DNA of 64,000 nt from Nitrospirota bacterium (GCA_963790025.1 CAWBMP010000004.1:1536001-1600000), one strand, 5' to 3'. Shown: positions 61,006 through 63,860, counted from the first letter of the stretch. The notes: generated from the letters alone by a model not told the origin. Translations and numbers: made by a program.

Positions 61006-62445
61006 TCACACAATCGGTTTGAATTGTTTCATCATAGCTGGTTTCTTATCCAATATTTCAGAGATCAGCCATATAGTGACTTCGTTCTGAAACTTTTGAA
61101 TCTTACAACCCTTTTCGTAAGGCATTTTAAGGTCGCCATTGTACTGGACATTATTCGCCGGGCACAATCCGCCACAGAGATACCTGGACCAGCAACTGAT
61201 GCACTCCTCACACTGGAACACAAAACCCCTCAACTGTTGACATAACCTGTTCTGTTTGTCAATCTTGAGACCGGTGTCGACGTCCCCTAGCTTGTATTCC
61301 TCGATGCCGACAAAGCCCATGCATGGGTAAAGATCTCCTGATCCTGAGACGCAAAGGCTATTGATTCCTGCACCGCAGGGCGTGGTTTTTGGAGTTTCAT
61401 AATACACCTTGGCTATGTTATTGCTCATCACGACATCGGTTGCATTGTCCTTTTCCAACAACTCCTTCAAATAGAAGTGTGCAAACCTCAGATATTCTTT
61501 CTTCATGTCCTCTAAATCTTCGTCAGAAATGACAAAGTTGCCGTTTCCATTAAAGAGCTTGCTTGCCTCATTTGCAAATCCGACCTCGACATCGGGAAAG
61601 CCCATGTTTTCGAGGAATTTGTAAACCTCCAGTTTTTTCAAATTTGGCGGCGCAAGAGTCGCTTTAATGGATACCCCGACTTCATTGGTGTCCATTACCC
61701 TTAAAACATTCGAAATGACAGTATTCCAGCTTCCCCTTCCATCCTGATACGGGCGATTGAAATTGTGGTTTTCTTTGGGCCCATCGAGGCTTACACCTAT
61801 ACTCAGCCTCCTGGACCTCAAAAACTCGATGATCTCATCGTTCATTACCGTCCCGTTAGTTGTGAGCTTGTAGTCAAACTTTCGAATGCCCCGGTCTTTT
61901 ATTTGATTGCAATAGTCTATGGTAGACTTTATAACCTCGAAATTCAGAAACGGTTCTCCGCCGTAAAAGTCCACCGTGATTTCGTCGTTCTCAGTTGAGT
62001 GCTGCACGAGAAAGTCAATCGCCTTTATCGCGGTCTCTTTGCTCATTTTCCCTTCACTTTTTCTGACGTATTTACCGCCGTCGTTCCAGCAGTATCTGCA
62101 ATGCAGATTGCATCCGGCGATCAAGTTCAAGGTGAAAGTTACAATCCGTGTCTTGAAGTGTATGTTTTCCGGCGGGAAGTAAGAATGTTTGGTTTTTTGA
62201 AACAGCACCCCTCTTCGTTCCAAATCCCGAATTTCTGCCATGGCGTCTTTAACCGCCACTTTCGGGTATTTACCGTGAAGCTTCTGCAGGATATCGGAAT
62301 CTGAGTTAATGTTCCACAATTCAAGGACATCTCTTGCCACGGCATCGATCCTGAAAAACTTCGCGCTCTCGACATCAAAAAGCAGCGTCGTGCCCTCAAT
62401 ATCAAAGATATGCACCTGCTTGTCTTTTAAAGTCTGCATCATCAT
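61006..62445 (-). CDS. RRE-radical SAM-SPASM peptide maturase (CteB/ranthipeptide-synthase-like)
   Basis: N-terminal VHIFDIEGTTLLFDVES (RRE-like), CNLHCRYC, FYGGEP, TTNGT, SLDGP, and SPASM CGAG...GDLYPC...CISC....LCGGLC...GC. Start at the ATG overlapping the upstream TGA. Confidence 0.92.
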   Translation of the reverse strand: MMMQTLKDKQVHIFDIEGTTLLFDVESAKFFRIDAVARDVLELWNINSDSDILQKLHGKYPKVAVKDAMAEIRDLERRGVLFQKTKHSYFPPENIHFKTRIVTFTLNLIAGCNLHCRYCWNDGGKYVRKSEGKMSKETAIKAIDFLVQHSTENDEITVDFYGGEPFLNFEVIKSTIDYCNQIKDRGIRKFDYKLTTNGTVMNDEIIEFLRSRRLSIGVSLDGPKENHNFNRPYQDGRGSWNTVISNVLRVMDTNEVGVSIKATLAPPNLKKLEVYKFLENMGFPDVEVGFANEASKLFNGNGNFVISDEDLEDMKKEYLRFAHFYLKELLEKDNATDVVMSNNIAKVYYETPKTTPCGAGINSLCVSGSGDLYPCMGFVGIEEYKLGDVDTGLKIDKQNRLCQQLRGFVFQCEECISCWSRYLCGGLCPANNVQYNGDLKMPYEKGCKIQKFQNEVTIWLISEILDKKPAMMKQFKPIV

Positions 62446-63860
62446 TGTTTCTGAAGCGAAGAGGTGCACTTCTTTATTTGAAGCGCTATGGTGCACTTAT
62501 CAAACTCGGCAGAATTCCTGCATTTGTTTGTCTTCTGCTTATCAGAAGTGCACTTATTTACCTGGATTTCAATGGTGCAATTGTCTAACTTTTCAGCAAC
62601 TGTGCACTTGTTATCTATCTGGGCATTGGAAGTGCACTTATCTACTTGTGTTGTATTGTCGCATTTATCCCATTGCGCCGCATACGTGCACTTATTGTAT
62701 TGTTCAGCTGCGCCGCATCGATTATTCTGCAGTTCAATAGTGCACTTGTTGAACTGTGCGTCTATAGTGCATTTATTGTATTGCGCCTGATTGGTGCACT
62801 TGTTTACGTTTTCTTCCGCAACACATTTATCAATTTGCGCTGCCGTAGTGCACTTATCAAGCTGGTACGCAACCGTGCATCTGTTGGTCTCGGCAGGAGT
62901 CGTGCATTCGTTCGTTCTCTGCTTATCTGATGAGCACTTGTTCACTTGTATTTCCGCTGTGCATTTGTCGATTTGAGCATCAGAAGTGCACTTATCAATC
63001 TGGTACGCAACCGTGCACCTGTCGAGCTCGGCGGCTGTCGTGCATTTCTTTGTTTTCTGGTTACCGGATGTGCACCTGTCTACTTGTGCCTCTGTTGTGC
63101 ATTTGTCGATTCGTGCCTCGACAGTGCACTTATCAAGCTGATACGCAACTGTGCAGTTGTCGACCTCGGGAGGAGACTGGCACTTGTTTGTTTTCTGGGT
63201 ATCGGAAGTGCACCTGTTTACTTGTCCCTCTATCGTGCACCTGTCAATTTGCGCTGCAACCGTGCACTTGTTGATCAGCTCATCCACGGTACATCTGTCA
63301 AATTGCGCTGCAACCGTGCACTTATTGAATTGTTCGTTCATAGTGCATCTATTGTACTGTGCCGCACCGGTGCATTTATTTATATGTGCCGGCATGGTAC
63401 ATTTGTCCAGCTGTGAATCTCTGCTGCAATTATTGAACTGATACGCAATCGTGCACCTGTCAATATCGGCAGCACTCTCGCACTTGTTTATTTTCTGGTT
63501 AGCGGAAGTGCATTTGCCTACTAGTCCCTCTACAGTGCATCTGTCAAATTGCGCTGAAATCTTGCACTTATTGAATTGTGACTCAATTGTACATCTGTCA
63601 TGTTGCGTATTTGAATTGCACTTGTTGATCTGTTCCGGTATAGTGCATTGATCACGTTGTGTATCAGTGATGCATGGCCTTTCTTGTGTCTCTAATTTGA
63701 ATTCCTGCAGATTTTCTCTCCGGGTTGCAGCAGTTATTTTCCCGTCAGTTTCAGATTCGTGACTGCCGGCGCTGTGACCTTCCGCATCAATGTTTGACAA
63801 AGGCACGATATGTTTCGATTTAGAAACAACTTTCCCTTTTTTTATTCCCTTTGTTTTCAT
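62442..63860 (-). CDS. Cys-repeat protein: 62-aa leader plus 45 Cys-led repeat units; putative giant substrate of the adjacent radical SAM enzyme
   Basis: Long clean ORF with RBS AAAGGGGGAG, a Cys every 9 or 10 residues from position 63, and an ATGA overlap with the maturase. Confidence 0.85.
   Translation of the reverse strand: MKTKGIKKGKVVSKSKHIVPLSNIDAEGHSAGSHESETDGKITAATRRENLQEFKLETQERPCITDTQRDQCTIPEQINKCNSNTQHDRCTIESQFNKCKISAQFDRCTVEGLVGKCTSANQKINKCESAADIDRCTIAYQFNNCSRDSQLDKCTMPAHINKCTGAAQYNRCTMNEQFNKCTVAAQFDRCTVDELINKCTVAAQIDRCTIEGQVNRCTSDTQKTNKCQSPPEVDNCTVAYQLDKCTVEARIDKCTTEAQVDRCTSGNQKTKKCTTAAELDRCTVAYQIDKCTSDAQIDKCTAEIQVNKCSSDKQRTNECTTPAETNRCTVAYQLDKCTTAAQIDKCVAEENVNKCTNQAQYNKCTIDAQFNKCTIELQNNRCGAAEQYNKCTYAAQWDKCDNTTQVDKCTSNAQIDNKCTVAEKLDNCTIEIQVNKCTSDKQKTNKCRNSAEFDKCTIALQIKKCTSSLQKQ
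62445..63674 (-). repeat. Coding tandem repeat with a 27/30-bp period
   Basis: GTGCAC/GTGCAT motif (Lys/Arg-Cys-Thr codons) recurs every 27 or 30 bp; units diverge, including at synonymous positions. Confidence 0.9.

Follow-up and report, generated by a model that had tools for sequence, protein, structure and literature searches.

A putative RRE-binding word in the leader of a large cysteine-repeat protein encoded beside a radical SAM/SPASM enzyme in a Nitrospirota bacterium

Introduction

What can a six-residue word in the leader of a cysteine-repeat protein tell us about the enzyme encoded next to it, and about the origin of the pair? The question arises at one end of a 64,000-nucleotide stretch of DNA (the window) from a Nitrospirota bacterium (GCA_963790025.1, CAWBMP010000004.1:1536001-1600000), where the gene of a repeat protein, P0001, adjoins that of a radical SAM/SPASM enzyme, P0002. 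A preliminary description had noticed the word KHIVPL in the leader of P0001, had likened it to the RRE-binding leader of SCIFF/CteA, and had taken it as independent support both for an enzyme-substrate pair and for descent of this pair from the ranthipeptide lineage by massive expansion of the core.

Several systems provide a frame for this question in the parts of the literature drawn on here. CteB binds its own leader as an added strand (PMC6231123, PMC8326336), and its AuxI has an open site at which a substrate Cys binds (PMC6231123). Interaction with QhpD requires the leader of QhpC (PMC7876137), and several Cys-Asp/Glu links are formed in QhpC in the cytoplasm before export (PMC7876137, PMC8172795). 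CrpC installs ranthionine-like cross-links in CrpA, a large Cys-repeat protein, and its activity falls when the predicted N-terminal RRE word of CrpA is cut (PMC13692751). For large proteins, validated cross-linking by enzymes through thioethers is described as limited (PMC13692751), and predictions based on full-length similarity can be overturned by six catalytic-proximity residues (PMC10288494).

Results

The precursor gene and its cysteine repeats

The ATG of P0001 at 63860 lies 6 bases downstream of a purine-rich ribosome-binding site, and its stop codon overlaps the start ATG of the maturase gene by 4 bases (Table 1). The core contains 45 Cys, spaced by 9 residues in 38 cases and by 10 in 6, in units of the form C-T-x-x-x-Q-hydrophobic-[DN]-[KR]. 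The 10-residue units, at C117, C217, C263, C309, C409 and C437, are spread at intervals over the core region (62442-63674), and five of the six read CTS-x-x-Q-K/R-T/I-N/K-x; this spread hints at block duplications of about 46 residues.

Table 1. Features of the precursor and maturase genes, in positions of the window
Feature	Position	Strand	Basis
Ribosome-binding site of P0001	63867..63875	-	read from sequence
Precursor gene P0001, whole, 472 aa	62442..63860	-	ORF read from sequence
P0001 leader, residues 1-62	63675..63860	-	Cys-free; Lys-rich start, motif, acidic/Gly-Ser spacer
Putative RRE-binding word, K16-H-I-V-P-L-S22	63795..63815	-	ranks first on the SCIFF, QhpC and combined matrices
P0001 Cys-repeat core, residues 63-472	62445..63674	-	Cys spacing count
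Radical SAM/SPASM maturase P0002, 479 aa	61006..62445	-	profile, structure and PDB-sequence matches
RRE domain, P0002 residues 11-77	62215..62415	-	AlphaFold2 model
CxxxCxxC radical SAM motif (C112, C116, C119), then W120	62089..62112	-	alignment
SPASM region, Cys 357, 375, 415, 418, 424, 428, 447	61105..61377	-	match to CteB/QhpD

The AlphaFold2 model of the precursor was uninformative (pLDDT 37.9), the ESM Atlas held no usable match, and the leader had no match among PDB sequences at E 10. For P0127 the same atlas gave sub-0.9 leads only (CXXX-repeat targets and a TAT signal cluster) together with matches to a low-confidence model. PF13165 matched neither P0001 nor anything in its own genome, and PF08992, the model of the QhpC gamma subunit, did not match P0001. 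Sequence searches for P0001 homologues recovered none among 56 candidate stretches of genome contigs and none among sets of 3861 and 5542 candidates. In a profile search over representatives, three of the best 150 of 155 matches were judged to be true fragments (P0130, P0133, P0136), the others among these 150 being, by judgement, unrelated repeats. One DNA sequencing run, possibly of the source sample itself, contained 8 contig pieces with zero differences; among the runs listed, none of RNA contained the sequence.

An enzyme with a CteB-like frame and a different active-site profile

The AlphaFold2 model of P0002 (pLDDT 93) has CteB as its top structural match (TM 0.79-0.80, 29% identity) and anSME as the next (sequence E 7e-16). 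The view that the enzyme begins with an RRE fold like that of CteB, the nearest solved structure, was borne out: three strands (11-16, 19-24, 29-33) are followed by three helices (35-43, 49-55, 62-77; pLDDT >90), and PF05402 matches this region weakly, at E 0.082, under its cut-off. The segment that had been quoted as the start of the enzyme is not its literal start, as it covers residues 11-34, after MMMQTLKDKQ, but it does align with the start of CteB (MIHKFSMMGTNIVVDVNSG in 5wgg_A; full match E 8.9e-65). A complex prediction that combined RRE residues 1-95 (90-row alignment) with leader residues 1-62 gave 0.31 in three runs, where the mark was 0.32 and controls gave 0.00.

P0002 bears the marks of a ranthisynthase in its fused N-terminal RRE and in a CxxxCxxC motif combined with a seven-Cys SPASM set that leaves AuxI open. 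The seven SPASM Cys occur in 19 of 20 clade rows, the remaining row being truncated, as they do in SCIFF maturases and QhpD; an extra Cys365 occurs in 9 of the 20. The family departs from these enzymes in the six catalytic-proximity residues, a scheme defined on CteB in the text of PMC10288494. All 20 family members read W-Y-T-S-[MIL]-G, with M376-G377 of P0002 at the position of His-Gln in CteB, whereas the same positions read F-F-T-S-H-Q in 26 of 27 SCIFF maturases, Y-F-T-S-H-R in 11/11 QhpD and Y-F-N-S-H-R in a single sequence (1/1). The P0002 family thus fails the ranthisynthase profile [FY]-F-[TN]-S-H-[QR], which derives from the CteB scheme in a comparison that leaves PapB outside.

The leader word exceeds chance

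KHIVPL does occupy residues 16-21 of the repeat protein, as read from the 472-aa ORF (63798..63815, minus strand). The SCIFF leader consensus given in the preliminary description is also correct: 32 fetched SCIFF loci yielded 31 precursors, in which the successive positions read K (30), H (24), I (28), K (22), T (29), L (19) and N (19), Ile in place of Thr being rare (1/31). K, H, I and L of KHIVPLS match this consensus; V-P differ. On a seven-column SCIFF matrix, built from 22 distinct leader words, KHIVPLS scores 13.1 bits and is the best window in the entire protein, the next reaching 1.2; this score is attained by 2 of 2351 own-genome ORF starts, one of which is P0001, and by 8 of 5000 shuffles. 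The word also ranks first on a QhpC matrix (10.0 bits; 14/2351 ORF starts, 42/5000 shuffles), made from 5 distinct words of which two include residues ahead of an uncertain start, and on the combined SCIFF and QhpC matrix (17.8 bits; 0/5000 shuffles). On the SCIFF and combined matrices it leads the next window by 12-15 bits, the second-best leader window being KKGKVVS. The loose pattern KH[IV]xx[LIV] occurs within the first 62 residues of 8 of 2351 own-genome ORFs of at least 200 aa, P0001 included, and in 0.7% of leader shuffles. Since the motif was chosen by eye beforehand, these chance figures are somewhat overstated; the resemblance of KHIVPL to the SCIFF leader word, which the preliminary description had noticed, is nevertheless real and exceeds chance.

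The word is shared beyond SCIFF

The same resemblance extends to other peptide families. Pro is found in the word in none of 31 SCIFF leaders and in 8/8 QhpC words, and qhpC genes (three annotated) begin MKHLKPIN, MKHLTPAN, MKHLKPLN or MKPLN; the QhpC set comprises 8 leaders from 21 loci, 13 QhpC-like loci having escaped the search pattern. Short peptides that end in C-R-[SC]-G-R-V-L-W and lie near a sister clade of the enzyme begin MIRLLN, MKAKKIN or MHIRKIS. On the enzyme side, 25 of 27 SCIFF maturases and 11/11 QhpD retain His12 of the RRE start. The kinship of the word with QhpC and GRVLW leaders, together with His12 in QhpD, indicates a word common to a wide group. As far as such comparisons reach, a KHIVPL-type word is an old type common to several peptide families and not a mark of the SCIFF lineage.

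Homologous loci keep the gene pair and the skeleton of the word

About 20 close relatives of P0002 are 41-77% identical to it. Six of their loci (L007, L087-L091), in which the enzymes are 42-45% identical to P0002, were obtained, the named genomes among them being Candidatus Krumholzibacteriota and Eisenbacteria MAGs. In 6/6, the gene directly upstream of the enzyme encodes a protein of 350-379 aa that has 31-32 Cys, repeated at period 9, and is 29-33% identical to P0001; the gene pair is thus conserved.

The six leaders, with the N-terminal fragments P0130 and P0136 from the profile search, form a set of eight homologous leaders; these are kin and therefore not independent observations, and the set represents relatives other than the query's own subclade (P0003, P0005, P0006; 72-77% enzymes) and P0007, P0008, P0022 and P0023. 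All eight have the order M-x-R-R-x-F, hydrophobic stretch, small-residue region and H-[IVM]-x-[LM]-[IV]-G, after which an acidic spacer, 12-21 residues long, leads to the first core Cys. In each of the nine family sequences an H[IVML]xx[ILV] word occurs once only and lies in the leader, ahead of the core, and the homologues' word is their best leader window in 8/8 cases on the combined matrix and in 7/8 on the SCIFF matrix alone. On the SCIFF and QhpC matrices these words score at background level, from -6.6 to 2.5 bits, which between 251 and 2063 of the 2351 ORF starts also attain. In the reverse direction, a matrix derived from the homologues gives KHIVPLS -2.1 bits, a score reached by 1818/2351 ORF starts and 4163/5000 shuffles, and prefers another window of the query leader. 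In a MAFFT alignment, HIVPL of the query falls opposite PLW in the signal region of the homologues, and the distance from His to the first core Cys is 46 in the query versus 18-27 in homologues and 18 in SCIFF. The His ahead of xPLW is variable in the eight leaders (H, H, K, F, F, K, F, Y), whereas the downstream His is invariant. Conservation of the motif among homologous leaders thus holds for a skeleton of H-hydrophobic-x-x-hydrophobic-small (8/8) but not for its details.

The pair belongs to a rare family. The enzyme is present in 1 of 317 genomes of the order, its own; in the homologues' phyla, 4/201 and 1/10 genomes were positive, apparently at loci already known, and viral contigs contained distant relatives only (at most 35%). 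A full-text literature search, with most subscription journals outside its coverage, returned no description of such a family.

P0002 forms a clade of its own

The kinship of P0002 with ranthipeptide maturases is clear. It scores 278.6 with the SCIFF model TIGR03974 (cut-off 425), 274.1 with the QhpD model TIGR03906 (453), 265.4 with nif11, 257.9 with the PapB model NF047865 (340) and 99 with TIGR04463 (525), under every NCBIfam equivalog cut-off listed. In an unrooted tree of 39 of 78 rows (LG+G4; PapB absent), which leaves out near-copies and the long branches P0106, P0061, P0120, L014, L141 and L145 and replaces an earlier quick-mode tree of all 78 rows that included long branches, the P0002 family has support 100/99, and a 99/96 branch parts SCIFF, QhpD and nif11-type enzymes from it. 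A constraint uniting the P0002 clade with SCIFF (and with P0028, added after tree inspection) was rejected with p-AU 0.0025, in a test for which 5/71 false rejections are noted under this model. P0002 forms its own clade, separate from SCIFF maturases. Its RRE is 27% identical to those of SCIFF maturases versus 23% to those of QhpD, and its D24 is common to 27/27 SCIFF maturases and 0/11 QhpD.

The proposed descent from SCIFF through expansion of the core is not supported, in view of this separate clade, the rejected constraint and the presence of the word in QhpC; the tree being unrooted, the direction implied by "expansion" is not established either. Nor is the motif fully independent support for the pair and its lineage, since leader and RRE would be passed down jointly with any core and any chemistry.

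Export signals and genomic context

RRxF followed by a hydrophobic stretch is present in all eight homologous leaders (best 13-residue hydropathy 1.43-1.93) and absent from the query, where a scan of the leader found neither (best value 0.21). By this pattern the homologous leaders look like Tat substrates. Curated models fail to confirm it: TIGR01409 matched one of five homologous leaders, at 13.9 bits against a cut-off of 16.7, Pfam (PF10518) matched none, and Tat models run on full-length homologues matched 0/6. TatC is encoded in 4/4 homologue genomes tested and in the query's own genome, but also in 11/14 controls, so that its presence does not discriminate.

A third gene lies downstream of the enzyme in all six homologous loci (L007:7484-9424; L087-L091). 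Its products, of 630-680 aa, have a signal-like start and 34-70% mutual identity, and the two that were scanned in Pfam contain CARDB and FlgD-Ig-like domains and a weaker PPC match; tblastn found no match to this gene in the query's own genome. In a genome of the same genus, the flanking downstream genes, which we take to be ACT/DUF711-like, are kept at 89% DNA identity, and the enzyme is absent from the 12 kb examined. The query pair, which stands by itself here, fits, with this genome and the single positive among 317, a patchy and probably acquired cassette, and a reduced one when set against the three-gene form.

Just past the end of the window, a gene at G000:C4:1600152-1600673 (L177:6153-6674, minus), on the same strand and about 290 bases upstream of the precursor, encodes a 173-aa protein with a signal-like start, for which all family matches are sub-cut-off.

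Discussion

A docking and cross-linking model

P0001 is likely to be the substrate of P0002, and KHIVPLS is, from its sequence, the probable word that the RRE binds. Building on the motif and its statistics, the gene pairing, the RRE fold, the Cys set and the clade, we infer a mechanism of binding and catalysis, reasonably probable as a whole, in which docking of the RRE on KHIVPLS is combined with thioether linking along the 9-residue units. KHIVPLS would add a strand to the N-terminal RRE sheet of P0002, in the manner of the CteA leader on CteB, and the docked word would tether P0001 while the radical SAM/SPASM site processes its units. The word itself would have been inherited across a wide group of RRE-bearing SPASM maturases, including those of SCIFF, QhpC, the short GRVLW-ending peptides and the P0001 family.

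In this mechanism each Cys thiol would bind the first auxiliary cluster at its open site and would then be linked, as a thioether, to a side-chain carbon within the same unit. The Cys periodicity and the CteB-like frame lead us, by analogy, to regard thioether formation as the most likely chemistry, with moderate confidence. Candidate acceptors are the Asp/Asn that precedes the next Cys by two residues, present in 41/45 cases in the query, or the Gln at +5, both of which are kept in query and homologues: Gln +5 is found in 71% of query units and 58% of homologue units, and Asp/Asn at +7 in 95% and 62%. The Ser/Thr at +2 of the CteA pattern occurs in 24% of query units and 72% of homologue units, and C-x3-[DE] at 6/45 Cys of the query.

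The position of the word directly behind a Tat-like signal in the homologues suggests that cross-linking would take place in the cytoplasm and be followed by export of a chain no longer threadable through Sec. The query copy, without a signal, would remain inside or exit by another route. A more ambitious scenario, which we hold to be rather doubtful, is that the W-Y-T-S-[MIL]-G enzyme docks on an internal word and installs some 30-45 cross-links, maybe of a new type, on a 40-50 kDa protein, and that in most members, where the word lies behind a twin-arginine signal, the product is a Tat-exported, stapled extracellular protein partnered by the conserved secreted CARDB/PPC protein. Should this be true, the number of cross-links would lie far above that of radical-SAM products in the literature consulted, and a RiPP leader would be nested within a secretory preprotein.

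Relation to known systems

The pair resembles CrpA/CrpC and QhpC/QhpD and is a member of neither, nor of SCIFF. The closest precedent is CrpA/CrpC of Methanococcus voltae (TIGR04463), in which, in the account given by PMC13692751, an RRE-radical SAM-SPASM enzyme with seven SPASM Cys also adjoins a large leader-plus-Cys-repeat protein. P0002 reaches less than a fifth of the CrpC model's cut-off, however, and CrpA has a 17-residue motif ten times, with C-X-X-Q/D, unlike the period of 9, the 31-45 Cys, the Q at +5 and the D/N at +7 seen here; the homologues of P0001 further differ from CrpA in their Tat-like signal. With SCIFF/CteA-CteB (TIGR03974, PF13165, 5WGG/5WHY) the pair shares domain order, RRE start, K-H-I-x-x-L and the seven SPASM Cys, but the SCIFF substrate is a 46-aa peptide with 6 Cys, as against 350-472 aa here, its word is N-terminal and not internal, and its maturases form another clade and keep the His-Gln pair. 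QhpC/QhpD (TIGR03906, PF08992) offer a leader word K-H-L-x-P-[LIA]-N that includes the Pro, and a protein substrate. Unlike at those loci, no dehydrogenase subunits, protease or ABC exporter were seen beside the P0001 and P0002 genes; P0002 lacks the His-Arg pair and stays at 274 against the cut-off of 453, and the core of P0001 is repetitive. In the freyrasin system PapA/PapB (NF047865), a single enzyme likewise makes repeated Cys-Asp links along a repeated motif, but P0002 scores 258 against 340 bits there, and P0001 has few C-x3-[DE] sites.

Alternative explanations

The most substantial challenge, though one we consider somewhat unlikely, concerns the chemistry: the leader may dock as proposed on an enzyme that is no ranthisynthase and that forms C-alpha thioethers, performs an anSME-like Cys oxidation or makes some other link. 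Replacement of the His-Gln/Arg pair by [MIL]-G in 20/20 members and the Trp after the SAM motif speak for it, as does the power of the six-residue profile to overturn full-length predictions, according to the text of PMC10288494. The place of anSME as next structural match fits as well, and Cys365 could serve as a fourth AuxI ligand in the 9/20 members that have it. Yet conservation of Cys365 is lacking, Thr and Ser stand where ranthisynthases have them, the other two positions are aromatic, and full-length similarity to CteB (E 8.9e-65) is far stronger than to anSME (7e-16). It is less probable, and in our opinion unlikely, that KHIVPL is a chance word, or what is left of the hydrophobic PLW segment after loss of a Tat-like signal, and that the RRE binds instead at KGKVVS (8-13), at residues 46-57 or to a folded part of the substrate. 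The MAFFT placement of HIVPL on HVPLW/HLPLW, the failure of the homologue matrix on KHIVPLS and the rank of KKGKVVS, which is like the Lys-rich GRVLW-peptide starts, would agree with this, and CrpA without its leader keeps some processing in the account of PMC13692751. Against it stand the variable His ahead of xPLW beside an invariant downstream His, and the 12-15 bits that separate KHIVPLS from the next window.

The repeat protein could also be an unmodified metal-binding or disulfide-linked solenoid, the enzyme having a different substrate. Unrelated 9-residue Cys repeats are indeed common in other kinds of protein; this reading is nonetheless very unlikely, given the precursor-enzyme order in 6/6 loci across phyla, the overlap of the genes and the fused RRE, and given that no other candidate peptide lies beside the enzyme within the window. 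Finally, a SCIFF/CteAB pair with a massively expanded core could be the ancestor of the system. The SCIFF matrix gives the word its highest score among single-family matrices, CteB is the nearest solved structure, the RRE and D24 lean towards SCIFF over QhpD, and C-x-[ST], present in 72% of homologue units, is reminiscent of the CteA Cys32-Thr34 link described in the text of PMC8172795. Such an ancestry is still highly improbable: the SCIFF score is short of its cut-off and level with those of the QhpD, nif11 and PapB models, the 99/96 branch and the rejected joint clade set the family apart from SCIFF, Pro is found in QhpC words and in no SCIFF word, and PF13165 matches neither precursor nor genome.

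The leader word is itself ordinary and no lineage marker, and the family behind it is of more interest. Its putative substrates, with 31-45 regular Cys, are well suited to testing how processive RRE-tethered radical SAM enzymes are and in which direction they proceed; the coupling of modification and Tat export is directly testable, as forms with and without a signal exist; and the missing His-Gln/Arg pair tests the predictive reach of active-site profiling.

Further observations

Several neighbouring families came to light in the same searches. A basic peptide of 26-45 aa that ends in C-R-[SC]-G-R-V-L-W is encoded at 51 of 228 loci (L008-L013, most of L093-L142, L150). The MAGs are of Omnitrophota/Elusimicrobiota type and have radical SAM enzymes of a sister clade, which is 26-41% identical to P0002 (best segment) and has the profile W-Y-A-S-T-[AST]; the peptide gene directly adjoins the enzyme gene in L008, L009, L095, L100 and L108. 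For P0024 and P0025 no NCBIfam model matched at 1e-95, and, judged by title, none of the papers listed in a literature search for GRVLW was relevant. This looks like an undescribed RiPP family. The Lys-rich start of P0001 (MKTKGIKKGKVVSK, window 63822-63860) resembles the Lys-rich, sometimes duplicated, starts of these peptides.

Another unlabelled enzyme clade (P0055, P0062, P0071, P0074, P0075, P0089, P0103), whose named members are Geobacteraceae, has the profile W-Y-D-S-I-A and stands on the P0002 family's side of the tree. Divergent PF08992 (QhpC-like) small proteins, with E 1e-8 to 1e-11, are encoded at L170 and L211-L223, in genomes of a sampled phylum and in G321, and the one at L170 starts with a QhpC-type KPLN word. 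P0231, of 510 aa, starts with RRTFLK, clearly a twin-arginine signal, continues in Cys/Asp-rich units of 9 residues (C-x-P-x-x-D-x-D-E) and possibly represents another exported Cys-repeat family. An unrelated 152-aa peptide with C-x3 repeats (L030:35-493) is encoded some 5.4 kb away from a radical SAM gene that is itself distant.
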